A DNA stretch of 54,457 nt, counting the filler, from Sluysia triapertura (Eukaryota), in the NCBI GenBank assembly GCA_046118255.1. It is 4 parts of 4 records of this genome, joined end to end, with 100 filler letters (N's around TTAATTAATTAA, not from the genome) between each part and the next. Parts side by side here need not be neighbours in the genome. Positions count along the whole stretch, not along the records: positions 1 to 12,243 come from JBJNIA010115641.1; positions 12,344 to 26,957 come from JBJNIA010253414.1; positions 27,058 to 41,961 come from JBJNIA010244654.1; positions 42,062 to 54,457 come from JBJNIA010099214.1. One strand, written 5' to 3'. The position numbers and the translations under genes are program-made. The notes beneath the pieces were generated by a model. It did not search any database, was not told the DNA's origin, and saw nothing but the letters and a program-made list of their open reading frames with translations. Below, one piece after another: positions 6,619-54,014 of the stretch (position 1 is the first letter of the stretch; each line of letters opens with the position of its first letter).

Positions 6619-6699
6619 TATAAAACCGCACAATGTATGCACGGTATGTCGAATTTAGGCCTATGTCTTAGATATGGTCAACATTGCTCATAAGCCCAT
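6619..6699 (+). pseudogene. CCCH zinc-finger remnant (Cx9Cx6Cx3H), copy A
   Basis: YKTAQC-MHGMSNLGL-C-LRYGQH-C-S*A-H, with a TIS11-like YKT..C lead-in and one stop. Confidence 0.75.
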
Positions 6700-6819
6700 A
6701 ACGTCTCATTCCTCATAGGACAACAACGATTTCAATGCTAACCTGGATCGTATGTACAATCTTTTATCCTCATTACAAGCAAAATCAAGCACATCAAACT
6801 CTTCGATTAGTGAATGCAT

Positions 6820-7700
6820 TGTGGTGGCCAACCTATTTTCTTAATAAATTTTATTAAAAATTTACATTACATATTCTCAAAACACTCACCAAAAATATCC
6901 CTTTTACATAAGCTTTTGTTAACATAACATACACCATCAAAATTTACAAATTACATTCAAAAATTAACATAAAACAATAATAAAGTAAATCAGCACATCT
7001 TACATAAAACCATACTCTTAAACATTTTTACGTTTCCATATTTATCTTTTTTACATCCACTAAAAACATCTTCATCCGTTAAAATCAATTAAACCCACAA
7101 TCTCATAACAGTCAAACCACAAATATATTCAAAACCATCAATTTACATTAAAAAATTCATCTAAAATACTTTATTCTTCATTTCTTAACAATTCAAGAAC
7201 AATCACGTTCGAAATTAACTAACAGACATCTTCAAAGCAATCCAAACATTATAAATTCACGATATTTATCATTAAATCCTGACATCCAAACATGACTTTC
7301 TTTCAAAACACCAATGCACATTTACCACTCATTTTAACATTTATACTATCCTAAAGTACTTAAGTCATAACCATTTACACTTTAATGCATCTGTTAGACT
7401 TCGTAAAATAGACTGACTAGGGATCGAACCCGGGACTTTCGATGCGCAGTGCGAATGCTCTACCACTGAGCTATCAGCCCCGTCTAACAATTTCATTTTC
7501 AATATATTCAATTATACTACTTGGCACTTTTAGGCCTTTTACCCCAACACATCTTCAGTATAGGGAAGTCCCATAAAATTCATCACACTTCATCATATAA
7601 AAACATTTCATATATACACAGATCATTAAACAAACTACTAAACTCATTCAAAAAACAAACATAATCATTGCACATAATTATCATGAACTACTGCTATTAT
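6820..7700 (+). repeat. TG-initiated C/A-skewed leader of a dispersed element family
   Basis: Starts TGTGGTGGCCAACCTATTTTCTTAATAAATTTTATTAAAAA. Related ends on the minus strand at 27334 (TGTAGTGGTCAAC), 54285 (TGTGGTGACCAACCC) and ~48035 (AACCTATT..TTAACAAATTTTATTAAAAA), each followed by G-poor, C/A-rich sequence. Confidence 0.55.
7392..7549 (-). mobile_element. 158-bp TGTT...AACA element carrying a tRNA-Cys-derived Pol III unit (copy 2)
   Basis: CATC duplicated at 7388-7391 and 7550-7553. Minus strand 7481-7410 reads GGGGCTGATAGCTCAGTGGTAGAGCATTCGCACTGCGCATCGAAAGTCCCGGGTTCGATCCCTAGTCAGTCT, then ATTTT. Internal IR TGTTAGAC (7392-7399) / GTCTAACA (7482-7489). Confidence 0.9.
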
Positions 7701-8244
7701 TACTACAATTCAAATCGTATTAAACAATATATATAATGATTATTGTCATTATTGTTATATAATATTATTATCAAATAATAACTTTTATAATAAATTTTAC
7801 ATCAACATTAACAATGCCATTATTAATAAACATAATAACCACGTTATTGTTATCATTATTATTTCTTTTGTCCTTATTATCAATCTCTCTTCTTATTCTT
7901 TTATTTTTTCCAGTTTATACATTTATATATTTATGTATATATTTATTTTCGTACCGAGATTTACCATGCAAATCATTGATAAACCAGACTGCTCAGACTA
8001 ATCCACCCAAAACAAGTAATCACGTCTCAAATCGTTACTCGTGCGTCTTGAGTAAAATACTGCAAGGCCAACTATTTAATCATAATGTTTGCTGTCGAAT
8101 GAATCATTTATCAACAACATACGCCACATCGATGATGATTACGACAACATATTTATACCATCTTTTACACAAGATTACTAAGATTAATTCTAATTCGACA
8201 AATCAGAAATGCTGAAATTAATTTGAACCCTTCGAGCTACCGAC

Positions 8245-8490
8245 ACCGAAATGAGAAGTGTATCAGTTACTCTGAAGTCACTGGAATTAAGTGAATCCAA
8301 GGCTTCTGTGTGTGAAGAATTGTTAGAAATACAATTTCAGCAGTTGTCGGAGGACTTGGAAGTCGCAAATAAACGTTTAGAAATTGAAGAAAGTTGCTAC
8401 ACTATCTATACTAAAGAATTGGAACAGTTGGAAGATGGTACTGACTTAGAAAACGAAAAGGATAATCAATTGAAATTTGAATTAGACAGA
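8245..8490 (+). pseudogene. Tropomyosin C-terminal fragment, intronless and divergent
   Basis: EMRSVSVTLKSLELSESKASVCEELLEIQFQQLSEDLEVANKRLEIEES...KELEQLED...EK...ELD follows the tropomyosin pattern EL..V..NLKSLE.SE.KA..RE..YE.QI..L...L..A..RAE.AE......KE...LED.L..EK......ELD. Confidence 0.7.
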
Positions 8491-10021
8491 ATTCCAAGCA
8501 ATTTAACTTTTATTATAATCGTTTAAGAAAATCAAACATTTAATAAAATTATAACTTGATAAATAAAATATCGAAATTCCAAATTATTATTTTAATATTT
8601 TTTATACATACCATACGTGTGTTAAACACTTTATTTAATTTTGAAGTTCATTTTATTTAAATTTTGAATACTTTGTTATATTTTTAATATTTTTTTTCAA
8701 CGTTTCTTTTAGTTAGGTTTATCAATTTTTTGTATTACGCTTTATGAGAAATTTGAGCTACTTATTACAATAAATAGATTAAATTTGATAGTATTATCAA
8801 TAATACTTGACAAAATTTCAAGCTTATCGTTTATTGTAAGTATAGTTTTTGTAGCAGTTGTTATTATTGCTGGTTCTATATAAATTTTATGCATGTTAAA
8901 AATATTACTAAAAATAATATAAAAATTAATTACAAATTAAAAAGAAATCAATATTTACGATGTTTCTCATAGTCATGGTTAATTGTAGTTAACCATGACT
9001 TTAAATCACGTAATGTTTATATCGTTGTTATTTATTGCCTAATGTATATAATATATAATACGCCGGCCGAAAATTTGATATGCAACAATTGCAATGAACC
9101 ATCCAAACCTGACAATGTCACTACCGTCTCTAATTGTACGAGCTGTAGCAAGCGAATCATTGAATCTGTTCTGATGTAAAACGTTTTCGCATATCATCAC
9201 ATGGAGAGTATCCCATTGTCCGTCCTTCAGGGATTCTGGAAGATTTAAAACTGTCGAATGTGGCTACATTTCTGACTGAGGATTATTTTCTAAATCGTAA
9301 CTCCAGTGTTGAAAGCGTTTTTATATGTCTTTCTTCTATTTTATCTTTTTTTAATAAAAAAGGTTTTATTTTGTTGGTGTTAAAATATTATTCTTTAAAG
9401 GCCCTAAGCCTAGTTTGTTAATTCATAAATTTAATAGTTTTTAAATGTTTTTAAAATTAAACGTTAATTGTTGCTTTTTAATTAAATGTTTCATATTTCA
9501 CATTCAAAATATAAAACTAAATATTCATAAATATAATTCAGTAACATTTTTCAAGTAAAAGCGCCCCACATTCAGCTTGAAACATTATTTCATTCAGAAC
9601 ATTGAGGTATATTCTAACATCTACATAAAGCATTCATATTCTTTCAAAATATTTAACACCTAAAATTATTTTCACTTGAAATGAGCAGACAACATTAAAA
9701 TTTACACCGAAACGCCTTACGCATTATCCTACAACATCAGCGTCACTATTACACTTTGAAGTCTTATCCAGGACACTTAACATTAGGCTGAAGTATCATT
9801 AAGATTGGTAAATATATAAGAAAAATTAAAGATATAAGAAAAGATTGTGTTTCCTCTTTACTTTTAACTTTTAATGTTTAGAAATTAAAGAATAGAAAGA
9901 AAATTCATGTTTAATTTAGAGAACAAATAATTTATGTAATTTAATGATAATAATAATATTATATTATTATTATCATTACCATTTTTTAGTTTTATTTCTA
10001 ATTAAATTAATAAATTATTCA

Positions 10022-10188
10022 GTAACTACCACTACCAGTGGGCACTGCATTAATTTACAAAGATAGTCAATGTCACCACTGATAGTGGTTCACATATCAA
10101 TCATCCAGCTTTTGATCTTTATTATTGGTCGTCCAACCAGATTTAGTCTCATTACTATTTTTATATTCCTCTGGTTGGACGGCCAATC
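10022..10188 (+). repeat. Paired inverted-repeat module (IR-A + IR-B)
   Basis: ACCACTACCAGTGG (10028-41) / CCACTGATAGTGGT (10076-89); ATTGGTCGTCCAACCAGA (10124-41) / TCTGGTTGGACGGCCAAT (10170-87), 28-nt spacer. Homologous to 36977-37142 and 47108-47422. Confidence 0.9.
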
Positions 10189-10281
10189 AGGTTGATAATT
10201 GTAATAAAATTATAATTATTTTAAAATTTTTTATTATTATTGCAAAAGGAGAATAACATTAGAAATAGCTATTTTACATCA

Positions 10282-10810
10282 ATGGATATTTCTATGTCTT
10301 CATAGAGTACTGGTTATGATTTTTCTGAAAGTCATGATTTCCATTTAAAATCATTATTAAACCATTATTCCATTCAAGATGATAATTACAAATTTAATGA
10401 TAATAAAGGTTACGACTGCAAAGTTGAAGATTATAAACATGATGATTATAAAGAGTATAATGGCATATCTAACAATTCTAAACTTAATGATTACAAAGTT
10501 GATGATTATAATTGCAAAACTAACGAATATAAAGATGATAATTATCAAACTAACAATGATGAAGATGATGATAGCGAAGTTAACAATAATAAAGATAATG
10601 CTTACGAACTAAATGTTTATAAAATTAATGATTACAAACTTAGCGATGATAAAAATAATCATTACGAATTTAACGATTATAAAAATGCTAATTTATCTGC
10701 AACTAGACAAATGTGATTTCCATTTGTATATTCTCTACCGACAACAATGGATATGCCTAATGCACGGAATATACTGCCGCTACGCACATTCCGTTTACGA
10801 ATTAGAATTT
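10282..10810 (+). pseudogene. Decayed ORF: N/D/Y/K-rich repeats followed by CCCH remnant (copy B)
   Basis: ATG at 10282 with an early stop. The frame from 10378 to ~10715 is open and repeats NDYK-like units. C-LMHGIY-C-RYA-H-SVYEL starts at 10754. Confidence 0.6.
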
Positions 10811-11599
10811 AACAAAGAAAGCGAAACAAATTAAAATCACCTTAAACACAGAATTGTATAATTACTCGAGAGTATTGGAGTTACCTCGTCCAATTCGACT
10901 GGCAATAGTTATAATGATCAATAACCATAAAGTAAACAATTTTTACATTCACATTCTTAGTATTATGAATTCTTATTTTTTAGATGCTGAAACAGATAAA
11001 AGAAAAGTCATACATAGGAGCCAAAATTTTAAATTAAAAATCATAACGAATACATTTTTATGCAATTTTCGTCGTCTTTTCATTATTCAAAAGTTAATTG
11101 TACAATTTAATTTTCAAAATTCAAAATAAATACTTCTAATCTTGTTTAATAATATTATTAGTAAATGTAAAACAAAATACAAATTAAATTTTAATTTTGA
11201 TATAAAAATAAATAAACATTATAAGTCACACATGCATAAGTCTTTTTAATAACGATGATCGCGATTCAGACGATCCAAATACAAATGACAATACGAACCT
11301 TTGAGGTAAATCTCTTTATTTTGAAATTTTTATTTAATCACCATAGGATTATCATTCAACGCATAGTTTATGGCTTACTAAAACATAAGTCAATTATCAT
11401 TTTTATCCTATAAATTAATGTACAATAATGTGTTGATCAATCTTGTTTATGTCATAATAAATAAACATATTAGATTTCACTTTGCGAATTTTTATTCTAA
11501 CCAAACAGTAGAGAGAATAAATAAAGTTGATAAATTATTAAATTTATTAACAAATTAATCGATAATATAATATTTAATAATGTAACATTTTGTAATCTC

Positions 11600-11822
11600 C
11601 CATATATGTGTGTTTCGAGTGTAATCGAATCATATGGCTTTAAATACCACATATATGCTGATGACGTGCAAATATATACTGAATTTGAAATGAACAACAT
11701 AGAAAATACAATTTAAAGAACAGAAGAACTAATATTTGAATTGATAAAATGGCTTGGAGATAAATACAATTGAAAATCAATGAAGATAAGACAGAATTTA
11801 TAATTATCAGTAATAAAAGTAG
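11600..11822 (+). mobile_element. L2/CR1-type LINE RT fragment, interrupted by an LTR
   Basis: YGFKYHIYADDVQIY (YADD at 11654), then W..(fs)..LKINEDKTEFIII. Confidence 0.8.
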
Positions 11823-12243
11823 TGTTAGGTCTGCCTTCACGACCCTTTAAGTTAACATAAAATGTTTTAAAATTATTTATAAGTGTCAAAAAACACCTAA
11901 AAAATATTAATTTTCCAAAAAAGAAATTTTATTTTCCAAAAGAAAAAGTTATTTTCTAAAAAAGAAAATAAAATTTCTAAAATAGAAATTAAGTTTCTAA
12001 AAATAGATTAGAAGCTTCTAGAATGTTCTAGAATATATTAGAACATTCCATCGACTTTCATTGGATGATGACTAGTATATAAATTAGCATCTTACAATGA
12101 AAATCGCCATTTAATTTTTCATTAAAATCGTCGCCATCTTACTTCAGCTCATTTGGTTTTCTACGCTTTTTGGAATTTTACATTCATTTGGACGCGAATT
12201 CAAATCTATTTTCACAAATCCATGCAAGGGTAAAATATTTTAT
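11823..12243 (+). mobile_element. HSE-containing LTR, copy 1 (truncated by contig end)
   Basis: Starts TGTTAGGTCTGCCTTCACGACCCT like the 51795 copy; the HSE-CCAAT-TATA core (~12010-12112) is near-identical to 51990-52092. Confidence 0.8.
12009..12083 (+). promoter_or_regulatory. Heat-shock element, inverted CCAAT and TATA box
   Basis: aGAAg cTTCt aGAAt gTTCt aGAAt aTATt aGAAc aTTCc = 7 of 8 alternating nGAAn pentamers; ATTGG at ~12060; TATATAAA at ~12076. Confidence 0.8.
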
Positions 12244-12343
12244 NNNNNNNNNNNNNNNNNNNNNNNNNNNNNNNNNNNNNNNNNNNNTTAATTAATTAAN
12301 NNNNNNNNNNNNNNNNNNNNNNNNNNNNNNNNNNNNNNNNNNN
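12244..12343. other. Artificial contig linker N44-TTAATTAATTAA-N44
   Basis: Same 100-bp construct occurs three times; the 12-mer has stops in all six frames. Confidence 0.97.
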
Positions 12344-26957: not shown

Positions 26958-27057
26958 NNNNNNNNNNNNNNNNNNNNNNNNNNNNNNNNNNNNNNNNNNN
27001 NTTAATTAATTAANNNNNNNNNNNNNNNNNNNNNNNNNNNNNNNNNNNNNNNNNNNN
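26958..27057. other. Artificial contig linker
   Basis: N44-TTAATTAATTAA-N44. Confidence 0.97.
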
Positions 27058-28184: not shown

Positions 28185-28227
28185 GTTAGTTTATTAATAT
28201 ATTGATTTATTCAATTTCTTTTTACTA

Positions 28228-34963: not shown

Positions 34964-35869
34964 GTTCGTAGATTTTTTATTTCAATAATATTTCTTATTT
35001 ATATTGTTTATTTGAAACTCTGAAACAATAGTGCTTATAACTGATGATGTAAACTGTTTATTTAACGTTAATATGATATTATAATTTTTAATTTAAATCG
35101 TTTATGGGAATATCTTTTCTAAGTATTTATGTGCGATTTTAACACTTTGATATCTTGCATTTTTCAGACGTTCAAATTCAAAATCAAATCTTTTGCATTC
35201 ATATAAATTGTTTTCGTGAAATATTGATCACTTTTTGAAATGAATTTTTAGGAAAAAATTGAAAATTTCTTTTTATTTTAAGAATTTAAGTCGATTGCTT
35301 ACTGTATGTTTTAAATTTAAGGTAAAGCAATAAAAGAAATAAGCCATAGTCGAACAAGCTTTGCGATATTTAACAGGACTGGGCAAATTACATGCCTGCA
35401 TTATTTTTCTGTTTGAACGTATTTTCGGTTTATATTTGAAAAGCATTTTTGAATGTACGAGAATTATAAAATTTATAAATTTATGTTGCATTTCAATTCG
35501 TAATTTATTTTTTAAAATAAAAAATCAAAATTTATTAAGTTTTTTCAAAATTATGAAATATAAGGTTTGTTGATTGAGATTATTTGTGAACATTCCTTTT
35601 AAATTAATTAAAATGAATAAAAATTCACAAAAACTCCTTAATCTATTTACAATTAACACGATTATATTAAATAATTTTAAATTTTCCATAATATACCATT
35701 GCATACAGTTGCAGGTCCCAAGATCTAAATCAAAATACATAAATGATAACAATTCGTTGTAAAATTTATAATTATTACTTTATTTGATTCAGCGTCATTA
35801 ATTTCTCGCGTTGACTTTGTATTCGAGTAATTGTCGGTCTTGAGTTGTTATACTGGATAATAATGCTGG

Positions 35870-36911
35870 TTCCTGAAGTTGATTGATAGTATGCGCGAAT
35901 CTACACCTATTTCCAAATTTTAGGCATTGTCCATTCTGATGAGATCTGTAAGCGCAGAGTATGTGATACATATTGACAGCACGGGTAATGTTGATTTCGA
36001 GATTAAATTGCTAATTTGTACATTGTCATTATTTTGATCATCAGTGGTTGACTCGTGCACATAATTCACCACCATTCTGTCCTGCATTGATTTTTGTTTT
36101 AGCTTTTTAGATATAATTTCTTTTGAAACATCATAGATCTTTTCGTCGAAAATATGTGAATAAATATAATTGAGAATCTCATCAATTTTTTTAGCATATT
36201 TACGTACAGGTATTTCTATGGTTCATTGTTATAATCGTTGTTTGGTCTATCAATTTTAATCCATTTAAATTGAAAATCATATCGATATCGCAAAGTGAAT
36301 TAGACAAATTATCGAAGACATACTTAGTTGTAACACTATCATCTAACATTTCTTGACTTACCAAAACAGATCAATTACAGTCATTTGTGCACATTATTAT
36401 GCTGTCTTGTTAAAACTAGATAAACATTATCTTTAGATTTATCCATTTTTAATTTAAAACTGCCTTGCTTGCAAGGACTTATAGAATCTCTTAAATTGCT
36501 AAGCTGATATCTAGTAACTTAACCATCTCATCAGAAACCGAGCAATGAATACTCCCAAATTATGTTTGAGATTATAGCCTTCATAATTGATATTTTTAGT
36601 AAAATATTGCTTCTAATTTTCAGTACTAGAATCATTAATATCATGTTCTTGATCATTGTTATCTGAATTTAACAAAATATTTTCGTTTGGTGGACAGGTA
36701 ATTACCATTTTTGTTATATTTATATTTATAAATTTGACTATTTGAGAAATGTAGTTCACTGTTGAGAATCGTTTTACGAAACGTTTGTCTTTTATGAAGT
36801 CTAGATAATCTCTATACTTTATCGATTTAATCATAAATAGCTCGCCTTTGGTATCATCTCGTTTGTTTAAAGATAAAATATTAATAGCCATCAAATTTGT
36901 TTCTGTTTCAT
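35870..36911 (-). pseudogene. Decayed ORF ending in an intact Cx9Cx6Cx3H finger (copy C), in a HUWE1 intron
   Basis: YHIL-C-AYRSHQNGQ-C-LKFGNR-C-RFA-H-TINQL with Cys1 to His at 35956-35891. The upstream part (including ORF 36894-36613) is broken and unrecognised. Confidence 0.7.
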
Positions 36912-36976
36912 AACAATAATAATGCTATTTTTATTTAATTGTTAATTTCTACTGCTATTGTAATTGTAACGATTTT

Positions 36977-37142
36977 TGAGTGGCTGTCCAACCAGAAGTA
37001 TAAAAATGATGAAAGTGATCACTCTGGTTGGACAGATATTAGTAAGACAAAAATTAATAGAATTGACAGACAAGCCACTATCAATGGTGACGAGAATTCG
37101 TACATAGTAATCACTAATGTCATCATTGATAGTGGTAATTAC
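36977..37142 (-). repeat. Paired inverted-repeat module
   Basis: CTGTCCAACCAGA (36984-96) / TCTGGTTGGACAG (37023-35), 26-nt spacer; CCACTATCAATGGTGAC (37075-91) / GTCATCATTGATAGTGG (37119-35), 27-nt spacer. Confidence 0.9.
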
Positions 37143-37790
37143 TGGTTAAGTGATAGAAATAAAAATTAAAAGTAATGAAAGAATAAAAATAATAATAATA
37201 ACAATGCTATTATTATTGTTATAAATACATAAATTTTTTCTACTTAAAAGAACACGATCGTTCTTTATATTCTTGACATATTAGAAGTTACGGGAATTAA
37301 AGAATTGTGATGTTATATATATATATATGCCACTAAAGCTTTGTTAATTTTAAACGAAGTAATGAAAAATTTAAAATATTTTAACGTACGCACTTGCGTT
37401 ATATAAATTAATATAGTATATAATATGACATAATGTCCATATAAATATTAAAAAATGATTGTTATTAATTACCAGTAGTCTTTGGGTTATTTGAACATTG
37501 AGTTACATGACTGTCATTTTTGTGCATTATTAATATTATATATTCGTATTTAAATCCCCAAAGCACAAATAACTCAATGATATTAATATGTGCGAAATTG
37601 TGCTACCATAATACTACGTTCTAATACCTGATTAGATTCTATTTCGACCTCACTTTCAATTTTGACATAGGTGTCATTGTTTTCTCACATATAATAATAT
37701 TATTATTATTAATTATAATTATAATCATTATTATATTTGTATAAATTTTGTACTAAATATGAAAATACAAATTATTTTTTATTTATTCAG

Positions 37791-41961: not shown

Positions 41962-42061
41962 NNNNNNNNNNNNNNNNNNNNNNNNNNNNNNNNNNNNNNN
42001 NNNNNTTAATTAATTAANNNNNNNNNNNNNNNNNNNNNNNNNNNNNNNNNNNNNNNNNNNN
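41962..42061. other. Artificial contig linker
   Basis: N44-TTAATTAATTAA-N44. Confidence 0.97.
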
Positions 42062-42716
42062 TACTTCTACTTCTACTATTACGACTACCACTACTGCTGT
42101 AAGCATGAAATTCACAACATCGGCATTTTATCGAGGGATTTGACTGTCTGAATCTTGTTCCGATCTCTGTCAATGATTATTTACATCCAAATTGTACAGT
42201 GTGCTGGATAGGTTGAACTTGAGATATTCATTACACACTTTTAGTGGTAAAAATTTTTTTGTTATAGTTTTTCCAGGATTTATCTTTCTGATGTGAATAT
42301 GTGCCTGTCAGGTCTGTATAGAGCCATTCAATTTGTCCTTAAAGACAAAGATGATTTTAAATTTTATATTTCCTCATACCATTGTGACTCTAGTTAATTT
42401 AACAAGCTTTCCCTCGTCAATTTCAGATAATTCACTCTAGACCTAGTTCTAAACATCTGGACGGCATCAGCTTGTTACTATGTGTATGTATTATTTTCAC
42501 ATAAATCAACTCAAAAATCATATCTAATAAGTGCCCTAAGTGCAACTTAATTTACTGTTCGAGTGAGAAATGTGTTAATTTCAAAGTAAATATTAAATAA
42601 ATTATGCGAAAAGATTATTGAAGTAGTGCTGATAAAATATTAATGTGGTATTATCACTACTACTATTATTATTATTACTACTATTTAAAAATAAGTAACA
42701 TATTCACTGTGTGCAG

Positions 42717-43025
42717 GTATGTTTGTGGGTGCACTATGTGCAGTAACTGGGGTACTAACTATTTCGCTTCCTGTTCCGGTAATTGTGTCGAATTTTTCTA
42801 TGTTTTATTCGCACACGCAAGCTCGCAGCAAGTTGCCTAAGAAACGAAGGCGAGTGTTACCAGTTGAAGCCGTGCGTCCCAAATTAAAGTTGGCGGCTGC
42901 AGCAACAGCCAATCACAGTCGACTTGTTATTAGTCACAGTCCTCAGAGATTGTCCAATCATCAAACGGCCTTGGGTGTTACAGAAAGGCTTTTGTCCAAT
43001 TACAAGAGTCCTGCTATCATAACTG
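42717..43025 (+). CDS. Shaw: Shaw/Kv3 voltage-gated K+ channel exon (S6 and proximal C-terminus)
   Basis: [51 protein letters not shown]. tgcag acceptor; either a G|gttaga donor after 43025 or read-through to the TAG ending at 43030. Confidence 0.92.
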
Positions 43026-44165
43026 GTTAGATTTATTCATCAAATAATTAACCAATACTTTTTATTTCACGTTTCTATTTCAAGGTAGAATATTATTCGA
43101 TATTCGATTAATATTCGATTTATTGGTATTTCGACTACTGAACCATCCACCTAATTATTCTGACAGCAGATTTGAACAACATAATTTAATTAATTAAGAG
43201 CGAATGTACAATCGAAAAGAGATATTATTTCTGTAATTGCTTCAACAAAATATCCATTAATATTCTTTTGCACTTGAATTTCCATCTGTAAGATACATAA
43301 TATGATTTGTATTAATACATAATCCAATTAGATTTAGTACATTATCCTACCATATCGGCCATATTTCCTGAATATCCCTGGGTCTGCGGAGCCTTCTCTT
43401 TGATACATTTAATTTATTTAATACATTTATTTATTTGTAATTTATTTAAGAGTATTACGGAGTGATTGGGTGTGCTGGAGACGTAATGAATTCCGAATTT
43501 GATATTTATTTAATCAAAAAGCGTAACATTGACGTATGATTTGACAATGATTTTCATATTAAAGAAAATCCTGTCATAATTTATGCTGACGATTTTATGA
43601 GGAAATAATGCATTACAAAATGTTATTTTGAAGTCAGACATGTGCTTATTGGAAAATGTAAAGGAACCTACAATATTAAGTTAGTCAAATCAGTCATTTT
43701 TAGAAGATTTAGAACTTGACAAGTCATATCTATTTATTAATTATAGATTACATGGATGAATGTCATTAAAATATAATCCAGTTGATTAGCCATGAATTAG
43801 ATATCGTCTAACATCATTGAGCGAAAAGTCGTGCGTATATACGAGTGGTATTATTGGGGGATAATTGTTTGTGATACCACTTCGCTCTAAATTGATTATA
43901 TTTATTTAATTTTTGGGGACATTACAATTTTGGTTGAGTCCATTTTCATAATTGCGTAGTTTTTATGTTATTAGTGTTCAATAGTTAATTATTTATTTAC
44001 AATTATTTTAACATTTATTTGGGGTATTTAATGTTTATTCGCGATAATTGATTATCTGTTTTATTGTAAAACAGAGAATGTAATTGAAGGTAGATCTTAT
44101 TTTGATTCTCTGAGTTCTGAATTTAAAATTATTCGAAAGTTAAATCAAACTATTTATAAAATGCG

Positions 44166-44280
44166 CATCATTATCATCATATTTTTATTCTTCATCATCA
44201 TTGTCATCATAATCACCATCATCATCATTATCATCATATTTTTAGTCTTCATCATCATTGTCATCATCATCACTATCACC
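44166..44280. repeat. CAT-rich 57-bp tandem duplication
   Basis: CATCATTATCATCATATTTTTA.TCTTCATCATCATTGTCATCAT at 44166 and 44223. Confidence 0.85.
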
Positions 44281-45617
44281 ACTTTCATATCTTTTTGATC
44301 TTATTATTACTTAAACTTACCCTGATCAAAGAATGAGTTATGTTATGAGTTCGCTTACGATTCTAGTCTTACAAGAAGTGGCTTGGTATGATTTTAAAAG
44401 AATCTATTTCTTTCATGCAAGTTCCAAGGTTATTTTGAGGAATGCATTGAAAATTAAAGAATGGTTCCGCCTTAGGCGAGTTTAATAAAATTTAACTTAC
44501 ATAATAATAGGATTGTTTTCCGCTTTATAGCGAGATTATTAATAAAAAGTTAAACTGAACCGTTGAAAAGCTTCATTTTATAGTTCGGTATTATGCACGA
44601 AATGTTTAGAATGTTTTTAATGTGTTGAAGCCGTGTAATTTAGATTTTGATAGTACTTTCGATTCAAATCAAAGGGATCGATAAAATGTAAATCACAAAT
44701 TTAAGACAAAAAATTATATTATGATAACCTAACAGAAATTTAAGACAACGTAACTTATTTAGAAGCAATAATTAAAAAAATTTAATAAATTAAATGTGCA
44801 GTTTACTGAATTATTATTATTAATTTTAATCGGATTTTGAAAGATGAATGGAAACAAATACAAAACTAACGCGTACCGAAGTAAAAATGATCTCTGTAGA
44901 AATAGCCGATGAAAAAGTCTTTTGTTTTTTCTTCGGATATATCGATATTAGAATCTCTTTTATTAATTTACTTCTAGACAATTGCTTTCTAACTTTAAGA
45001 AAACAACTCAGAAATTTTATACTTACCAATAGTTGATTTTCTGTGGCTGTTGATACTCCTTCTTCAAAATTTATTTTATGACTAATAAAAAGAACATTAA
45101 AATTTGTCTAAAATATCAATAAGAATTTTCTTTTAACCTATTAATGTTTTTATTTTTGAATAATTTATAAATAATTTAAAATAATTTATTTTATGATATT
45201 TTATTAATGTGATTATGAGTTGATTGCTTTTAGAAGATTTTATTTGATTTTAAAACTTGGTAGTGTAAAATTACTTTTTATTAAATGTAAGCAAAATGAT
45301 AAAATGGGAAGTTTGCAGACAGTAAATGAGAATCTGTAGATAAAATAATATTTTATTTATTAAATCGAATTTAAAAAATTCAATGTTTATAAAGTTCGGT
45401 TTGTATATATTGTTTTCTGACAGCCACGTTTCACTATCTGAAAAAGAATCAAAAGTCAAGTATCTTTAATGTAATCGTAAAAAATATTTACCCTATTATT
45501 ACCATTAGTACTGTTGTTATCAAGCATTTCCGGAGTTGGTACACCGATGCTTACGAATAAATCTGAGAGTCTAACGAGATGATCCGTTCGGAAAGCACAG
45601 TTGACTTTATAGTCCAG

Positions 45618-45712
45618 CAATTGATTAACAGTGTGTACATGCACGCATTTAGTTCCGAAGTTTGTACATTCGCATCTTAGTAAACTGTATAAGGACAAAG
45701 TACTGGTTTATT
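45618..45712 (-). pseudogene. CCCH remnant (copy D) downstream of the primase fragment
   Basis: KPVLCPY..(1-nt loss)..EC-TNFGTK-C-VHV-H-TVNQL; first Cys to His spans 65 nt vs 66 nt in copy C. Confidence 0.7.
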
Positions 45713-46319
45713 TGCGACGAACTGAATTAACAGTAACCGATCAAACGGGCATTAAATTCTTGAACATATTATTTGCGTTTTGTTCATTAGGGGAATCGGT
45801 ATAATGATATACTGAGCACTTCTCCAAGCCATTTTTATCTTTATTGTCCTTGTTTAACTCAGATGAGTTAATTGGTGGGGCTTTATTTGGCATTCACTTT
45901 ACTCTTAAATTCATTGTCAGAATCTCAAAAAGTTTAATCTTTTCTATATTCAAGACACAATTTTATTTAGCTATTGCAGCGGCTGCAAAAACTCTCTTAT
46001 ATAGTTTAGAGTAATCATGAATATACTAGTAACTATTGGAGGGAACTTCAAATTTTGATTTAGATCACTCATATTAATACGACTCATTATATCTCTTCTT
46101 ATTCGAAAACTCAGCATCTTTTGAATCATCTCAAATTTATCTTTACTATTTTCAATTAATTCTGTACGAGTTCGCATCATGAATTCATAAAGGGCATCTT
46201 CTTTTAAATTTTCGGGTAATCTTTTAACTTCTAAAGTTGAATGACATTGAGAAAATATTCCAATAGAGTTGTTAAAGCTTAATCTAGTTTTGTTACTGAC
46301 ACTGGTGATGAGAATGAAT

Positions 46320-47007
46320 TAGGTAAAATATCCAAAATATATTTGATTCTTCCAGGATTTTCTAGCATTTTTTAAAAGCAAATCTTTTAAAATTATTTGT
46401 AAATATCGCTATACTAGCTCTTAACATCTTTCCATTTATTATTTATTTTAATTCTATTTTGCCTTGTTTATAACGACTTATAAAACCAACCAGATTACTA
46501 CACTAATTGACATAATAACTTTACCACATCATCAAAAGCCTCTTCTTCCAGAAAACACCCACCAAATATGTTTGAAATCAAAGTCTTCAGTTAGAATACG
46601 ATGCAGTTATTCCTGCAGTTATCAAAGTCTAACTATTTTTTTTACAAACATCTGCCTTTGAGCAACAATTTCGAAAATCATCATAATCTTTTATGTGAAT
46701 AGCAAACACTAAATCTTTAGAAACCGGCTGAAGTAAATAAGACAAATGATTTATTGGTATTGGGAGGCATGATAAAAATGATACCAATGTCAATTTTATA
46801 CGGATTCTTTTTAATCAACTCGGTTTTTAATTCATTTGCATTACGAAACGACAAATAACATACATAAATATTATCCTTCAATGTAAAACTAAATTCTCGT
46901 TTAGCAAAATTCTCCTCATTATTTTTAGATAACCATTTAAAAAATAATTGATATGGAAATACATTAACATAAATATTTCTTAAATTTGCTTTAAATTCTA
47001 ATGTCAT
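46320..47007 (-). pseudogene. PRIM1: DNA primase small (catalytic) subunit, intronless decayed copy of the N-terminal part
   Basis: FPYQLFFKWL...FAKREFSFTLKDNIY.Y.SF....LK.E...KNPYKIDIG, then across stops and frameshifts KDLVF.I..DYDDFRNCCSKADVC and L.EDF.FKH.WWVFSGRRG. Confidence 0.92.
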
Positions 47008-47107
47008 ATATATATATATATATATATTGTCTTTAAAAACATTTTTGGTTTCTAAATATGCTATTAATAAAAATGAATTTAATAGGTTAATTACTATTCT
47101 GACTGTC

Positions 47108-47422
47108 CAGATTGGTTGTTCAACCAGAGTGATGCAAATAATGAAAAGAGCTACTCTGGTTGGTCAACCATTAATACACTGAAAAATGTCTCACATGGAG
47201 AAGCCAACCATTATCTATTATGACAAGAATTTATACATGAAATGATTAAGTGTGTAATGAACTGTCATCAGTCGACAGTTAGTAAAAGAACACCTTATTG
47301 ATTTCGACTGATGGTAGGTTAACAGCAATTAAATTTTTGTGCGCTATAAATACAGCTACCATCAGTGGTGACAATAATTGTAATTGTGAATTAATGGTGT
47401 CTCCACTGGTAGTGGTAGTTAC
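47108..47422 (-). repeat. Paired inverted-repeat module with an extra IR pair
   Basis: TGGTTGTTCAACCAGAGT (47113-30) / ACTCTGGTTGGTCAACCA (47153-70); CATCAGTCGA (47266-75) / TCGACTGATG (47304-13), 28-nt spacer; CCATCAGTGGTGACA / TGTCTCCACTGGTAG (~47359-47412). Lies ~100 bp upstream of the primase ATG. Confidence 0.9.
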
Positions 47423-49042
47423 AAAGTTGGTCGATAGAAATTCTTTAAATAAAAATAATAAAAATAAAAATAATAATAATAATAATAATATTATTATTGA
47501 AAATTTAATTCGCTTAAATCTTTTGATTTGTCTTATTAATAACACGATCTTCCTTAATATGTATATTTCTTTTTCTTAACATATTTATAATATCTTTGTT
47601 TGCTGTAATGTTAGTTCTTTTTCCATTACTATGTCTTAAATTGATTTTATAATGTAACTTTAATATTTTTCGATGATCTATATGATTGAATGTTGAAAAA
47701 TTATGAACTTGAAATGTTTTGGATTAGTTTGGTGTATGTGTATTAATGATTTTGGATGTTAGTATGGTATTGATATAAGATTGTGAACTTAAAATGTATT
47801 GAAAAGAGAGTGGTTTAGTGAATGTAAAGAAGATAAATTATAGTCTAGATTTTGGTACATTCTAAAAATTATGCGATATTGAAAAATATGATTTTGATTA
47901 TGTTGAAATGGAACTATGTATAAAAATGTTTTTAATGCGTTTTAAAAATATACATTGTAGACTTTGAAAGTGAATATGGTTTTGTTGTATTCAAAAGAAA
48001 ATTTTTTAATAAAATTTGTTAAAAGTAATAGGTTAAATGATAAATATATGAAATTAAATTAAATTTTAATCTAAGAAGATTTACGCAATATGAAAAGGGC
48101 AGTTGAGTAACAATCCAGATTATAAATTTAAAGAATGCATGGAATGAAACTGGTACTAAGGCAGTGAGTGAATATTTATAGTAATGTTTGAGGTAACAAA
48201 ATTGTTAAAAATAATAAATTGTTAAATCGAAGAAATGTTTCTTTTCAATAATTCAAACAAAACCACGTAAATTTAAATATCGTTCAAACGTACAGGAGCC
48301 GTATACAGCGATGTTAGTTTTAAAATAAGTAATGTTTATAGTGCAAAAATTGACTGGAACATCGGTCTTTAAACATCGGTCAAATTTTGCCTAAGTGGCC
48401 AACGCTGATATTTCAGCTCTAGGTCAGAACAATGATTAGAAATTATTTTATTAGAAAATGATTTAAAATTATTTTGTAAATAAAATCTTTATGTAAATAA
48501 AATAAACTATTCAACATATTAATTTTGTGAAATAAAATATTAATAAAATAAAATAATAAATTTAAAATTAAATATTGAATTTAATATATTAAAAAATTGT
48601 AATAAATTTAAATTTAAATTTTAAGTATGAATAAATTTAATAAATTAGAAAAGTTTTGTTTTATCGGATCAATTTTTGCCTTATGGCTTTATATTGAAAA
48701 ATTAATATTATTTTTTATATTAACTGAGTATTGCCTATTTCACAAGTGAACAATAAGTTTTAACTTAAAATTAATCACATACGCAATTACACCCACATTA
48801 CAAATTTGTAATGATTATTGAACGCTATTTAACCGAATAAGTAGTAATACCTTCTACTAGTTATAAAAAATCCTAATAATACGTCCTACAGAAATAAATG
48901 TAAATCATGCTTATTAGGCAGACTGACTCTCGGATTATTTTGTAAGTATAAAATTATGTTGAGATTAAGCTTTAATAAAGAAAAACACTTGCAATAATTT
49001 AGAAATTTTGCTATAATATTTTAAATTATTTTAATTAATTAG

Positions 49043-49701
49043 GTAGTTCTAGTATTTGGAGGCTGGACAGATGGCGAAGGTCCTCGGGCAGCTGCCCAAG
49101 TATACGATCCACGAGCTGATAATTGGACGTTATGGACTGAATTTTCTACAGATATTAATTTACTTGGTGAAATACCAAGACGTGTTTATGCCGGTTGTGT
49201 GTTGGTTAATAAACGAGTTTATTTGATTGGTGGATTTGATGGAACAAATGCACTAAAATCAACGTTATGTTATGACTTCGATATTGATTCTGGTTGGTAT
49301 GAAATCAGTTGTATGTATGAAAAACGATACTACGTAAGTGTAGCATATTACAATAAATTCATTTATGCACTTGGTGGACATAATGGTGAAAATCAGGGTC
49401 GCTTAGATACAGCAGAAAGATTTAATTTAGAACAAAATTTATGGCATCCAATTGCATCTATGCGTCGTGTACGTTCTGATGCTTCAGCTGCTGAATTGCG
49501 AGGTAAAATTTACATTTGTGGTGGTTTTGAAGGTCGTCATTATCATGATTCAGCGGAATACTATGATCCTGATATCAATCAATGGACACTAGTAAATCGT
49601 ATGTCGTCACCTAGAGGAGGCGTGAGCTTGGTTCGACATGATAACTATATATACGCAATAGGGGGAAACGATGGACATAGTCGATTAAGATCTATTGAGC
49701 G
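49043..49701 (+). CDS. Kelch-repeat exon, KLHL10-like
   Basis: aattag acceptor, CG|gttagt donor; VLVFGGW...YDPRADNW then GG-type kelch repeats; MYEKRYYVSV and RSDASA motifs resemble KLHL10. Confidence 0.88.
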
Positions 49702-51734
49702 GTTAGTTTTTATATTGTTGAAAAATCTCAGATAAGTTAGAATTATTTTGTTACTCTTTTTGTGAAGTAACAGTTCGAGTAGTCAGAGTAGTGTATAGTG
49801 GTGTTAAAATGTAGAAAATTTTAGTGCATTCGCAGTCTTCAACATAACTTAATTCATGTTGGTAATTTAATTTATCATAGTCTGAAGTGTAATACAAGTT
49901 CATTAAGTCTTTACGTGTCATTCAGATTTTAAATCAGTTTTAAATTGATACCAAATTAATCACACACTTTCAATTATTAATTAAAACAAATTATTTTTTT
50001 CTATTAGTGAATAAATAATAAATAAATACTGTATATCTTTTGAAATTTTGAGATTGTCGTTTATTATGAACTTCTTCAACATAAATCTTATAATTTTAAA
50101 ATGACAAAAGAAAATATTAATTAATTGAATTCTTCATTATCATCTTTATAAGTCAGAATTTGCTACAATGGATAGCAAAATAGGCAATTGTATACAGCAA
50201 AACAATCCAATAAATTATTATTGTAAAATCTTGGGAGTAAAGGAATGTTGACATTAGAACTTTATTTAAATTTTGTTTATGAATTTGAACGTTGATATAA
50301 TTTTTATGGAATATTTTATATGAATTATTATTGAATTATATGGATTATATTTATTTTTATGAGATTTATAAAATTACTTTATGGAATATTTAAAGGTATG
50401 ATTTTTATTATAAATTCTTAGTATAATTTTAAATTTTATTACACAGTGAATTAACGTGATTAATAGAAAATTGAATTAAATTATTTTTAAATTAAAATCT
50501 TAAAAATTAAATTCGTTTAAAATGCAACCAAGGTCAATCAAATCAAATAACACAATTTTGTTCACCAACTCGCAATAAATGTACACATTAATACACATAT
50601 TTTGACAATTGCAAATTTATTATCAGCTCCCTCTCTTTAATAGTTGTTACAAGTCTCTTGGAGCCAATTCGATTTTCTATTGTTTGACAAATTAATTTTT
50701 TTTGATTTAAATATTTTATTTTATTTTGATTTAAAGGATGACGTTAGTTTAATTATTTTAAGATTTGATATATCTATATCGCACGTAAAATCTATTAATC
50801 TATTAAAATCTTTTAAATCATTTTAGGATCCAACGAAAAATATTTCAATAAAATCCTTTATATTATTCATTAACTCAAAGAATTAATTATTGTAATTCTT
50901 ATTACTAGCCATTTGTACACTTCTAAGCAAACGTTTCTAAATAAATCATTCATAGTTAATTTTTGTTTACAATTTACATAGTTTTACATAAAATTTATCG
51001 CTTCGAAAAGATTTCCCAAAGTTAGAATTTAAATCTAACAAAGCAAAATAAATTTATAGATTACATTTCAAGGAATCAAGGAAAAATCACCCAATTAACA
51101 TTATTATTACTTTTGATAAAATAATTCAATTAATATTTCTGACTTACCTCCAGACAGTTAAAAGTATAAATTAGGCATTTTTTGAGCATCATTTGAGACT
51201 TTTTGATTTACAAAATCCAACAGCTGGCCCTACCGGTAAGCCCAGTACGTTGGTGAACTCACATAAAACTATCTCTTTATTCTATTATTTTACTTTAAAT
51301 TACTCACTTTTACACAGGTACATCAAAATTTATTTAGGCAATAATAACAATAATTTAATATGATTGTAGAAAATATAATAATGAAAAAAATAGTAAACCA
51401 AGTTTGCTTGCGGTTTTCCACATTTCAATAGCTTCAAATTTTATAAAGCAATAAGGATGTCCATTATATTTATCTAAACCTTGGTCATAATTGATAAATT
51501 CTGATGCATGTCTATAGCTATTACCAATCCATTTATATTTTTCTTTGAAAATTTTATTATGTTCTTTGCAAATGTATTATTATATTTATCATTTTTATAC
51601 CACTAGAATCCACTGTTATTATTACTATAACAAGAATAGAACATAAGTATAATAAAAATAAATTTCCACATAAATCCTTGTTTGTAAAACAATTTATTGA
51701 TTTTTTCATAATTTTTATTTTTATAATTTCAGAT

Positions 51735-53057
51735 GATATCGTGGCAACAGCGGTTGGGGTAATAACTAAATAAATACTTTCAGGATGAGAAAATTGTTAG
51801 GTTGCCATCACAACCCTACGAAATAATTTTAAGATGTCATAATGACACCTTAAAATTATTTAATACTATTTAAAATTACAAAAAATCATTCAAAACTATA
51901 GAAAATGTTTAAAATGATTTATTAATCCTTAAAATTATTTTAAAAAAGTATTTTCCAAAAAAAGAAAATTAGCTTCTATAAATAGCAGAGAAGCTTCTAG
52001 AATGTTCTAGAATATTTTAGAACATTCCATCGATTTTCATTGGATGCTGATTAGTATATAAACTTGCATCAGTACAATGAAAATCGCCATTTTTATAATC
52101 TTTATTAGTCAGTCGCTAAAAAATGAAAAATTTATCACGTGACGCAGTTATTGGCATTCGTAAAAAAGCAGTTCGAAATAAATCAACAGTAAACGCCATT
52201 CAAATCTACACTGGTTAAATATTCAAAGGATATTGAAAAAATTATTCATTCGGGTTTTTTGATCAGTTACAATCCATGCTAAAAGTAATTTGTTTATGTT
52301 AGGATTGGTATTAGTTTTTCTTAAGGAAAGTAATATCACAAAATACACTTAAAATCATATTCTGTTAATCTTAAGGTTCCCGATATATTGAGGGGTAAAA
52401 TCCAGTGTAAATTAATAACCAGTTTTTATTAAAGACTCAAAAGAGTTTTAATATTAAAATTCGCAATTAATTTTTAACTCTTGATTCTTTTATATCTTGT
52501 CTATAATTTAGTTGTTCATTTTTTATTTAATTGTTTTTGAAATAAAAATTTTTATTAGTCGATTGTGAATTTAATTAAATTAAATAGACCCTCTAATTAT
52601 AAGATTATAATTTTAAGTTACTGTAGTTATTTTAACTTATATTGTTACAGAAGTGCCTTCTTTACAACGTAAGAAGCTTACCGTAACCGGACCCTGCTCA
52701 ATTTTCTATTTTTCCTTAGGTTTAGACTTAAGTATCAATAAAAACCACAGCAAAATCTAGGATCAAATTCCATGATTCTACACCCTTCATCCGATATTTT
52801 TCTGAAAATTTCAAGTACGCGTTCAGCACTAGTTGTTTATTTTCAACTTCATGTTCATCACTTTTAAAAGTAACAAAATAATCTAATCCATTTTTCTTAT
52901 ATTTTGGCTGAACAGAACCACATCCAATTCTAACGCTTATAAGTTGATTTTGTCCATCTCAATCTTTATTTCCTTCCGTAACGGGAGTTGGAGCACAACT
53001 GTTTTTCTTTTTATATAATTCATAAATTAATTCCAACCGTTTTCCTGGCAGAATATT
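51735..53057 (-). pseudogene. RPB1: RNA polymerase II largest-subunit fragment (clamp region), split by a solo LTR
   Basis: KRLELIYELYKKKNSC...GCGSVQPKYKK(fs)GLDYFVTFK...(fs)SAERVLEIFRKISDEGCRIMEFDPRF. Removing 51795-52752 and one AAAT restores an in-frame DPRFSHPES, followed by an LP.P-like segment. Confidence 0.8.
51795..52752 (+). mobile_element. HSE-containing solo LTR, copy 3 (958 bp)
   Basis: TGTTAGG...AAAACCACAGCA with AAAT duplicated (51791-94, 52753-56); HSE at ~51990-52029, ATTGG, TATATAAA at ~52055. Confidence 0.9.
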
Positions 53058-53191
53058 TCAAAATGTACTTTTAGTAGTAGTACTAGTAAAATGGTTATCA
53101 TTCTACGTGAATAAGATGTTTTTAACTTCAGTATTCTAATTTATTATTTTACTTTAACCAGAAATTTTGAAAATATAGTTACTTTCCAATA

Positions 53192-53193
<2 letters not shown>

Positions 53194-53250
<57 letters not shown>
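53194..53250. repeat. (AAT)n microsatellite
   Basis: About 19 units seen directly. Confidence 0.95.
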
Positions 53251-53899
53251 GCAGTAATAATGGTAATAGTAATCGTAATAGTAGTAACTTGTGTTATCGT
53301 TCTTCGTGAATAAGATATTCAATAATGTCAACACCAGAAAGTTGAAGAAAGAGAGTTAGAAAGAAAGTTAAAAGCAATAAAATCTTGATAACAACACATA
53401 CATAAATATATACATAAACATACAATTATACAAACAAGAGGATAATATAAAAATTAATTGTGAAAATAACAAAGTAATATCGACAACAATGTCGTTTATA
53501 TTTTTGTCATGTCTTATTTTAGGTTTATAAGAAATAGATGTCTTAATTAACAAAATTGTAGTACTTGATTTATTACTTGATTTATAAAATTAAATTTTAA
53601 ATTTATATTATAATTATGCTTTATTAATACTTTATTTACTAAAATCAGATTAATTTCCTTAAATATAAAGTAAAAACAAAAATAGCTAGTTAATAGATTA
53701 ATGTTTCTAAATTTATGATCTAAAAATATTAAAATTTTGCCTAATTTACATAATTCCTGGATGTACCCCCAAGTTGATTTCCTTAGAATCATAAAAGAAT
53801 ATAAATAAAAGTTTTGATTTATCATAAAACATATAAATGTAAATGTAGTATTAACTTTTAAGTCATTATGGAACACAGGATCAAATAATGTTAAATTAG

Positions 53900-54014
53900 A
53901 TATAATGGAATTGAGTCGATCGTAATGATCATTACAGTTTATTGGTGGATTAAAAACATATCGGGAACATTCGCCAGTCTGTGTGGTTCCATATAAACTC
54001 ATAACGTTCTTGTA
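53900..54014 (-). pseudogene. Truncated CCCH remnant (copy E)
   Basis: YKNVM-S(agt, one change from tgt)-LYGTTQTGE-C-SRY keeps the x9 spacing. Downstream DRLNSIISNL resembles DRMYNLLSSL after copy A and VRLSDLFVSI after copy D. Confidence 0.5.

Follow-up and report, generated by a model that had tools for sequence, protein, structure and literature searches.

Broken copies of Unkempt zinc finger 3 in the long terminal repeats of a Gypsy-type retrotransposon of Sluysia triapertura

Results

Finger remnants and their surroundings

The window, i.e. the whole analysed stretch of 54,457 nucleotides from the Sluysia triapertura genome, consists of four pieces joined by N-linkers, hence the finger copies described here are not neighbours on one chromosome stretch. 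Copies A and B are situated on G000:C115641, copy C on C244654, and the fourth piece holds copies D and E. All five sites that had been predicted to encode a CCCH finger (6619, 10754, 35956, 45697 and 54014) are genuine and all are broken; copies A to D were recognized by profile or motif and copy E by its family match. The exact Cx9Cx6Cx3H spacing is found in copy A (first Cys at 6634), which has a YKTAQC lead-in and one internal stop, and in copy C, which retains 4/4 ligands inside a 70-codon open frame. The original prediction had read the full spacing also in copy D, with a 1-nt loss, and had called copy B partial. D and B are alike in showing a whole finger only when a frameshift is crossed in three-frame translations; copy D contains a stop in addition, and the first finger half of copy B lies in a different frame.

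The profile used to scan the window was made from natural genome copies and gave 64.8 bits for copy C, 40.9 for A, 15.4 for D and 11.9 for B, the scores of A and C being inflated because both are among the seed sequences. Among 40 simulated windows no score exceeded 2.2 bits, and the complete finger motif turned up 0.075 times per simulated window. Copy E was not picked up by this profile, yet it is a genuine remnant that matches a family copy (E 2e-13) behind an LTR start. As predicted it is partial, comprising the lead-in (54014) and the first finger half with a substituted first Cys, while the second half is absent.

Table 1. Features of the window related to the finger-bearing long terminal repeats (LTRs)
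Feature	Position	Strand	Remarks
Copy A finger, Unkempt-ZnF3-type	6619..6699	+	part of A-type LTR remnant
Solo LTR B	6820..11232	+	TGT...ACA; nested in tail of copy A
Putative later insertion(s) within LTR B	7393..9570	+	TGT start, CCCCACA end
Cargo of LTR B	10306..10716	+	Asp/Asn-rich frame, 15/30-nt tandem repeats; same in L329
Copy B finger	10725..10789	+	start approximate
3' tail of LTR A	11233..11602	+	resumes past nested LTR B, reaches A-type LTR end
LTR C remnant	35500..37300	-	ends approximate, both termini lost
Copy C finger	35891..35956	-
PRIM1 (primase small subunit)-derived cargo, LTR C	36213..36551	-	72% to L188, a host gene
Dyad of CCAAT-like boxes (conserved), LTR C	36974..37045	-	upstream of cargo frame
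LTR D remnant	45170..48034	-	about 10 nt of 5' end missing; 3' limit approximate
Copy D finger	45633..45697	-	across frameshift and stop
PRIM1-derived cargo, LTR D	46314..47007	-	begins with the start codon of the host gene (L188, 81%)
CCAAT-like dyad, LTR D	47106..47177	-	about 100 nt upstream of captured PRIM1 start codon
LTR E remnant	53960..54285	-	start at 54285, internal deletion, half-finger at 54014-53960

Each of these fingers sits within an LTR of 1.5-3 kb that belongs to a Gypsy-type retrotransposon, in agreement with the earlier view that they are element-encoded. An exact 5-bp target duplication borders LTR B on both sides (6815-6819 and 11233-11237), and the LTR parts 6820-7392 and 9571-10780 share homology with the 3' LTR of locus L329, which is linked to pol; the putative intervening insertion(s) partly resemble the LTR of L268, a related Gypsy element. 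The tail of LTR A reached 31.3 bits with the end profile and 83% to locus L063. In the primase cargo of LTR D, a 35-nt host intron is missing and the first Asp of the DxD motif is substituted.

Identity of the finger

The five fingers are broken copies of finger 3 of the host protein Unkempt (PF25427, PDB 5ELH). The Cx9Cx6Cx3H arrangement, initially regarded as non-canonical, is the ordinary spacing of this finger, and the match rules out a new finger type. The curated PF25427 cut-off was passed by 150/150 scored genome matches, while window copy C falls slightly short of it (29.4 against 31.1). Locus L085 aligned with fingers 2-3 of 5ELH (E 6.6e-15); the fold search gave nothing at E <= 0.001, its best hit being 5ELH at 0.06. 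A search for relatives elsewhere with the finger alignment, among proteins of 62-541 aa, recovered only 10 Unkempt-type proteins or fragments at 15-24% coverage, which does not imply that others are absent. Membership in TIS11/ZFP36, which requires tandem Cx8Cx5Cx3H fingers, was rejected, because the spacing differs, the finger is single and the similarity is only weak and local; the source is the host CCCH gene unkempt and not a TIS11 gene. The copies hold finger 3 alone or fingers 1-3, with homology to the host ending before finger 4, and lack the six tandem CCCH fingers of a whole Unkempt; fingers 1-2 were lost from most subfamilies. The host unkempt locus (L186) displays fingers 3-5 with introns present.

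The retrotransposon family

The LTRs of the family end with TGT...ACA/AAA. An exact 5-bp target duplication surrounds 13 of the 19 copies with both ends (0.33 expected from shuffles) and is inexact in the other 6, with every one of these copies carrying its own duplication. Genome-wide, 4,339 exact LTR starts (control 3), 36 polypurine-tract (PPT) junctions (control 0), several of them behind gag-pol, and 255 primer-site junctions (control 0) were counted. Reverse transcriptase (RT), RNase H and integrase are encoded in this order upstream of the PPT-LTR junction, and in L323, L329 and L259 the finger is located on the downstream side of it. At the other side, the finger LTR L073 leads into the primer site and an internal leader frame (E 4.5e-17); it is the sole finger-bearing LTR with a primer site, 1/62 finger-LTR 3' ends. 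The gag CHCC motif (Cx2Hx9Cx3C) is exact in L331 (twice) and L323 and degenerate in L330, L333 and L334. Since gag has its own CHCC motifs and the finger is located in the LTR, the suggested nucleocapsid-like function was abandoned. Identity to the nearest Pol proteins, most of which are unnamed, is 45-51%.

Most family copies are solo LTRs, and finger-bearing LTRs probably occupy over a thousand genome sites. The finger is present at 3/21 junction loci, many of which are cut short, and absent from 14/14 primer-site loci having at least 700 nt upstream. Among LTRs picked by their start, only 8/20 carry a finger and 12/20 have no detectable one, hence it is not essential. No element in which gag-pol is enclosed by a matching LTR pair was recovered from the 21 junction loci, where contigs are short.

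The primer site TGGTGTCAGGA is presumably of the tRNA-Leu type; a search for a matching tRNA gene with ARAGORN and Rfam gave no confirmation. A tRNA-Trp primer had 0 matches after the A-type end, and sites of this type elsewhere were no more frequent than in the control and not at these LTR ends. Searching the PPT as an uninterrupted purine run yielded 6 matches without shared adjacent sequence, the actual tract being interrupted. The reversed LTR orientation produced 145 matches, and among the 100 listed no common primer site was seen. A DNA transposon with terminal inverted repeats (Ginger, Pack-type) was also rejected, because end similarity is only weak, introns are lost and the ends join PPT and primer sites.

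Captured host sequences

The LTR frame is composed of a variable, host-derived front piece, the fixed finger and a conserved helix. Front pieces were identified as primase PRIM1 and as Unkempt fingers 1-2. BTB-BACK and EF-hand pieces are probably among them as well: the ESM Atlas points to BTB-BACK for the L004 cargo (0.90-0.93), which is a lead only, and the EF-hand matches score below the cut-off. One further cargo may be PX-like. No relatives of the segment following primase were found among proteins of 137-438 aa and the search for relatives of the L039 cargo elsewhere was likewise blank, neither of which implies absence. The 35-nt PRIM1 intron is missing in 13/13 PRIM1 copies and the unkempt intron is missing at the join of fingers 2 and 3, therefore the capture passed through spliced RNA. 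In the least diverged copies fingers 1-2 (PF18384) are present with about 80% DNA identity to the host unkempt exon. In this genome, primase gives 131 matches and the Unkempt finger thousands of candidates; apart from the host genes, the ones examined are LTR cargo. The DxD motif, which is catalytic in AEP primases, is intact in 3/24 PRIM1 copies after exclusion of 2 spurious regex matches, and by this measure the cargo does not represent an active AEP primase.

Behind the finger follows a segment predicted to be helical, in which positions are 97-100% hydrophobic among 32 copies; this amphipathic helix is conserved as strongly as the ligands. Two sites in the finger, which we take by comparison with TIS11 fingers to be base-stacking positions, are F/Y in 24/32 and 28/32 copies. 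Each solo LTR possesses a promoter-like dyad, the frame and AATAAA close to its end. U-G and C-A pairs are about equally frequent in the dyad, which disfavours an RNA hairpin and fits a DNA dyad; its CCAAT-like boxes suggest a promoter role.

Selection on finger and cargo

The finger has a dN/dS of 0.31 (0.21-0.47) for changes shared between copies, whereas private changes in the same copies gave 0.86. Overall, dN/dS was 0.70 for shared and 0.99 for private changes; the cargo gave 0.90 and shifted frames 0.98 and 1.05. In two subfamilies the value for shared changes is above 1, but few events underlie it (2.54 from 34 events, 1.34 from 23). Most copies were chosen by finger similarity, which lowers dN, and the unbiased check with primase-picked copies (0.29) rests on few events, namely 14. 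Synonymous sites are saturated between subfamilies and the ligands are kept. The difference between the shared finger value on one side and private changes near 1 and the cargo on the other indicates that the finger was selected during element spread and decayed later, as had been proposed. The counter-explanation given with that proposal, neutral divergence from one host CCCH gene, is right in its origin, unkempt, but not in its neutrality.

It appears improbable to us that the captured pieces are neutral passengers and the conservation of the finger an artefact of picking finger-like sequences. The cargo value, the rarity of an intact DxD and the start-picked LTRs without finger would agree with such a scenario; however, private and shared changes of the finger differ within the same copies, and primase-picked as well as start-picked copies retain the ligands at saturated dS. 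Selection could also have acted on the host side, if some solo LTRs were domesticated mini-genes of a diversified host family and the remainder pseudogenes, which we consider quite improbable. The complete set of dyad, frame and terminal AATAAA in each solo LTR and frames of at least 300 codons through the finger at 3/167 loci would be in line with domestication, but private changes are neutral, every copy retaining both ends is flanked by a target duplication of its own, and an intact orthologous locus was not identified.

Discussion

Collectively, we favour with moderate confidence the view that Unkempt finger 3 survives here as decayed copies in Gypsy-type LTRs, and that the reading frame terminated by each finger likely encoded an RNA-binding accessory protein of the element. 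Initially, reverse transcription would have brought the 5' part of a spliced unkempt mRNA, encoding fingers 1-3, into an LTR. Later lineages would have retained finger 3 and the following helix, with pieces of other mRNAs taking the place of the front part, and recombination between LTRs would have left mainly solo LTRs to neutral decay. The CCAAT-like LTR promoter might have driven the frame, the finger might have bound U/A-rich RNA, and the helix might have recruited a partner or dimerized. Past selection on the finger points to a likely RNA-binding helper of the element, the most likely effect of which would be that translation or stability of element RNA or host mRNAs was steered to the benefit of the element. 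The front cargo would then be a replaceable leader, providing start codon and bulk, rather than an enzyme.

Unkempt itself binds RNA through three-finger clusters, with a Kd of 5 uM for fingers 1-3 (PMC4358403), hence a lone finger may bind weakly. Its effector-binding region lies within the disordered part (PMC11009413), which was not found in the copies. The finger and helix might therefore be regarded as a protein-binding module that acted as adaptor or dominant-negative decoy for an Unkempt partner, an option that the loss of fingers 1-2 in most subfamilies, the need for finger clusters to achieve good affinity (PMC4358403) and a helix conserved like the ligands make worth considering. We nevertheless judge it unlikely, because the aromatics at the two base-stacking sites were kept or gained, resulting in TIS11-like loops. 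Very doubtful is the option that the captured sequence works as RNA and gives rise to small RNAs that hit genes of the host, among them unkempt and PRIM1, and blunt silencing. Pieces of piwi, aub and nxf2 in Drosophila telomeric elements provide a precedent (PMC13534243), captures occurred repeatedly, and one subfamily is still about 80% identical to host unkempt; however, selection acted on amino acids, synonymous sites are saturated relative to the host in most subfamilies, the captured genes identified here are not piRNA genes, and according to PMC13534243, piRNAs targeting the host were nearly lacking where identity was about 79-82%.

Going beyond an accessory protein, we tentatively propose that the LTR could have been a gene-fusion machine, in which a fixed promoter and the selected Unkempt finger-helix as "RNA tag" were combined with host mRNA pieces swapped in front. 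Solo LTRs would then be complete mini-genes, giving over a thousand different RNA-tethered fusion genes, part of which would counteract RNA control by the host and part of which might still be expressed.

Descriptions of host genes captured by animal LTR elements usually present them as passengers within the internal region. In the present family, the LTR itself contains an RNA-binding domain of host origin, which was under purifying selection long enough to saturate synonymous sites and was amplified with changing partners. Accessory genes in the LTR are known from retroviral nef and MMTV sag. With the family described here, a putative accessory protein of a retrotransposon becomes accessible to tests, and the many natural variants allow the capability of a single CCCH finger to be explored; the family also warns annotators that primase and Unkempt-finger matches in this genome can be LTR cargo.

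Compared with finger 3 of Unkempt/UNKL, the element copies share the spacing and the YKT lead-in, but they are usually lone fingers without fingers 4-6 or the remaining protein, and they are intronless, placed in an LTR, and joined to foreign front parts and a conserved helix that stems from the host's own linker. Regarding the retrotransposon, the element works like a relative of the CsRn1 clade of Ty3/Gypsy (PwRn1, AgCRs; PMC2582038) without being assigned to it. The gag CHCC, the RT-RH-IN order, the GPY motif, the polypurine tract and TGT...AAA ends are shared, whereas target duplications have 5 bp here and 4 bp there, the primer site is TGGTGTCAGGA instead of tRNA-Trp, and the LTRs, which include a cargo frame, measure 1.5-3 kb here and 381 bp in PwRn1. 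Captured accessory genes on LTR elements are also represented by the bdelloid ORF3s (PMC5408684) and planarian Burro (PMC6431247). In the literature compared, we found neither an Unkempt finger in extra ORFs of LTR elements nor a fixed C-terminal domain with swappable N-terminal host pieces in an LTR; an LTR-borne captured unkempt cassette was likewise not found in the mainly open-access literature searched. LTR-mediated retrocopies (Tan et al. 2016, PMC5131818) are likewise intronless partial mRNA copies that include multi-parent chimeras and undergo renewed retroposition, but they replace part of the internal ORFs and represent young polymorphic loci. In contrast, the sequence captured here lies within the LTR, persists in high-copy solo LTRs and contains one domain under purifying selection.

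Identity of the finger and its copies in the window

Sequence similarity identifies the finger as the third of Unkempt: copy C matched PF25427 (E 7e-7), and a less diverged copy aligned with the second and third fingers of the mouse protein (PDB 5ELH; E 6.6e-15) with identical spacing, hence the spacing regarded as non-canonical in the original prediction is that of a known protein. Finger 1 (PF18384) is also present in other copies. The five predicted Cx9Cx6Cx3H copies were recovered in different states: A and C match exactly, the former interrupted by a stop, the whole finger of B and D is readable only when a frameshift is crossed, and E is half a finger. Using a profile from natural copies, with A and C in its seed, copies A-D scored 11.9-64.8 bits, whereas none of 40 simulated windows exceeded 2.2. 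Genome queries with copy C and with copy A gave at least 150 scored matches each, and PF25427 found 5,489 unscored candidates, while all 150 scored ones exceeded the cut-off.

The source assembly comprises 619 Mb in 263,945 contigs (GC about 25%), and its genes look animal-like. It contains a host unkempt locus with introns (L186, fingers 3-5) and a second intron-containing unkempt-like locus (L187); the element copies are closer to L186 (about 82%) than to L187 (71%). The linkers in the window connect pieces of different origin in the assembly, so spacing measured across a linker has no physical meaning.

Features located in the window
Feature	Position	Strand	Remark
Finger copy A	6619	+	exact match at 6634
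LTR B	6820-11232		inside tail of copy A; exact 5-bp target duplication
Finger copy B	10754	+	
Other short dispersed repeat	11965-12112, 23819-23902, 51944-52092		present in other loci too
N-linkers	12244-12343, 26958-27057, 41962-42061		identical, 100 nt each; join four pieces
Host exon, FYVE-PH	22174-22920	-	
Host exon, UBA-like	27690-28205	+	
Finger copy C	35956	-	exact match
Host exon, ion-channel-like	42695-43030	+	
Finger copy D	45697	-	
Host exon, Kelch	49043-49735	+	
Finger copy E	54014	-	

The LTR and its link to gag-pol

The vehicle of the finger is a long terminal repeat (LTR). Homology between copies is sharply bounded; the LTR starts with TGTGGTGGCCAAC in every subfamily examined and ends in ...TTACA or ...CCCAAA. 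Both ends were detected in 19 of 167 distinct finger loci, and in 13 of these 19 the 5-bp target duplication is exact, 12 of them lying at offset 0, versus 0.33 in shuffles. The exact start occurs 4,339 times genome-wide (control, 3). Among 20 LTRs chosen by start only, 8 contained the finger (6 with at least 18 bits), which extrapolates to roughly 1,300-1,700 finger-bearing LTRs among exact starts alone. Most finger copies are solo LTRs. Nearest-neighbour identity among 143 copies is 67-91% (median 83%), indicating that the sampled copies are old. At L374, L375, L385, L389 and L390, LTR end plus primer-site-like sequence form short tandem repeats.

Upstream of the frame, at a distance of 650-1,150 nt from where the LTR begins, lies a dyad of CCAAT-like boxes, a candidate promoter with possible NF-Y sites, with 33 matches in 202 kb within elements versus 0 in 74 kb of flank. 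Covariation was found in 6 of its 11 pairs, and since C-A and U-G are about equally frequent, a DNA dyad fits better than an RNA stem. AATAAA clusters located 40 nt (C-type subfamily) or 70-120 nt (A-type) before the LTR end are a weak hint of a 3' signal, given that the DNA is AT-rich.

One LTR start lies behind an integrase and is preceded by the same motif as in a related Gypsy element; this motif plus a polypurine tract precedes the LTR start 36 times (control, 0). Gag-pol pieces occur upstream in most of 21 such junction loci read further, where reverse transcriptase, RNase H and integrase pass Pfam cut-offs. The attached LTR contains the finger at three of the 21 (L323, L329, L259), many others ending too early, and L329 and LTR B belong to one subfamily. 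Downstream, 255 LTR-type ends adjoin the primer site TGGTGTCAGGA against 0 in the control; finger LTR L073 has this site too, with the internal leader frame after it. Three results speak against the link: the site was found at just one of 62 finger-LTR ends; the 14 primer-site loci that extend 700 nt or more upstream showed no finger; and an element with two LTRs was not recovered among the 21 junction loci, whose contigs are short.

Beyond the primer site, L372, L382, L384, L392, L395 and L396 contain long Asn/Thr/His/Lys-rich frames of low complexity, which resemble the frame before gag in L331 and seem to represent an extended gag leader. A related subfamily (L322, L327, L328, L331) has TGTGGTGGCCC/T starts, the same polypurine-tract motif and LTR frames of no assigned family. 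A second Gypsy-like group (L260, L263-L266, L272-L274) has extra frames next to pol, some with hydrophobic envelope-like stretches. Long frames at L267, L269 and L270, which we take to resemble vertebrate-type retroviral genes, are possibly DNA of another organism within the assembly.

Capture of host cargo

The sequence before the finger differs between copies, and this cargo is derived from spliced host mRNA. One such piece is PRIM1, the primase small subunit (131 PF01896 matches in the genome; PDB match, E 2e-12); other cargo comprises Unkempt fingers 1-2, an EF-hand-like piece below cut-off, Asp/Asn repeats in copy B, a tentatively BTB-BACK-like piece, and sequences without assigned identity. 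A related pol-linked 3' LTR of the same family, in which the finger was not detected, has a Ski/Sno-like frame of 326 codons (L319:7207-8184, +; PF08782, E 8e-9). Host PRIM1 (L188) has a 35-nt intron that all 13 aligned copies lack, 12 of them precisely, and PRIM1 homology runs from the host start codon to a host splice donor. The Unkempt homology opens at a host exon boundary and continues into finger-2 coding sequence without an intron. This pattern fits acquisition during reverse transcription, the route set out in Tan et al. 2016 (PMC5131818), and the stop at a splice donor suggests that splicing was also involved. The DxD motif is intact in only 3 of 24 PRIM1 copies, hence the cargo is no active primase.

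Selection and possible function

Variants were classed column by column in 119 copies of six subfamilies, drawn from 151 with sufficient flank. Private variants gave a dN/dS of 0.99 (0.89-1.10), indicating that copies decayed neutrally once inserted. Where at least three copies share a variant, the ratio is 0.70 (0.60-0.82) for the whole frame; by region it is 0.31 (0.21-0.47) for the finger, 0.70 for the tail and 0.90 (0.72-1.16) for the cargo. Shifted-frame controls gave 0.98 and 1.05, and two subfamilies exceeded 1 on small counts. Because finger similarity had picked most copies, the analysis was repeated on primase-picked ones (14 of 25 aligned, plus reference), giving 0.29 on 14 shared events and 0.83 for private variants. 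Compared between distant subfamilies, rows that had to hold 4 of 6 marker residues show nearly saturated synonymous sites (pS about 0.7-0.8) and retained Cys, Gly and His positions.

In a set of 32 stop-free copies, selected by ligands and not by helix, four helix positions after the finger hold hydrophobic residues in 97-100% of cases. AlphaFold predicted a helix at 43-59 (pLDDT 71, pTM 0.38), and the fold search gave no significant match. Aromatic residues occupy two finger sites in 24 and 28 of the 32 copies, the first being Asn in the host. According to PMC4358403 and PMC11009413, Unkempt recognizes a UAG plus U/A-rich motif with its fingers arranged in two clusters, and it acts via CCR4-NOT to repress translation. 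When still active, the element would have expressed a fusion protein encoded in its LTR; of Unkempt it retained only finger 3 and a helix. The reading considered most likely, at somewhat better than even confidence, is an accessory role in which the protein binds RNA to the benefit of the element; its rivals are a protein-binding module, neutral carriage of the captured pieces, a small-RNA decoy (PMC13534243) and host domestication. The structural history alone is considered highly probable.

Comparison with known systems

Extra ORFs in LTR elements are described in PMC5408684 and PMC6431247, with further context in PMC12471100. An LTR-borne Unkempt cassette was not found in the literature searched, nor a similar fusion in protein searches within the protein length ranges covered. 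The element shares a CHCC gag, the GPY motif and TGT...AAA ends with the CsRn1 clade as characterized in PMC2582038, but lacks that clade's 4-bp duplication and tRNA-Trp site; hence, it is CsRn1-like and not classed as a member. The finger type itself is already known, and the novelty lies in a variant of LTR gene capture.
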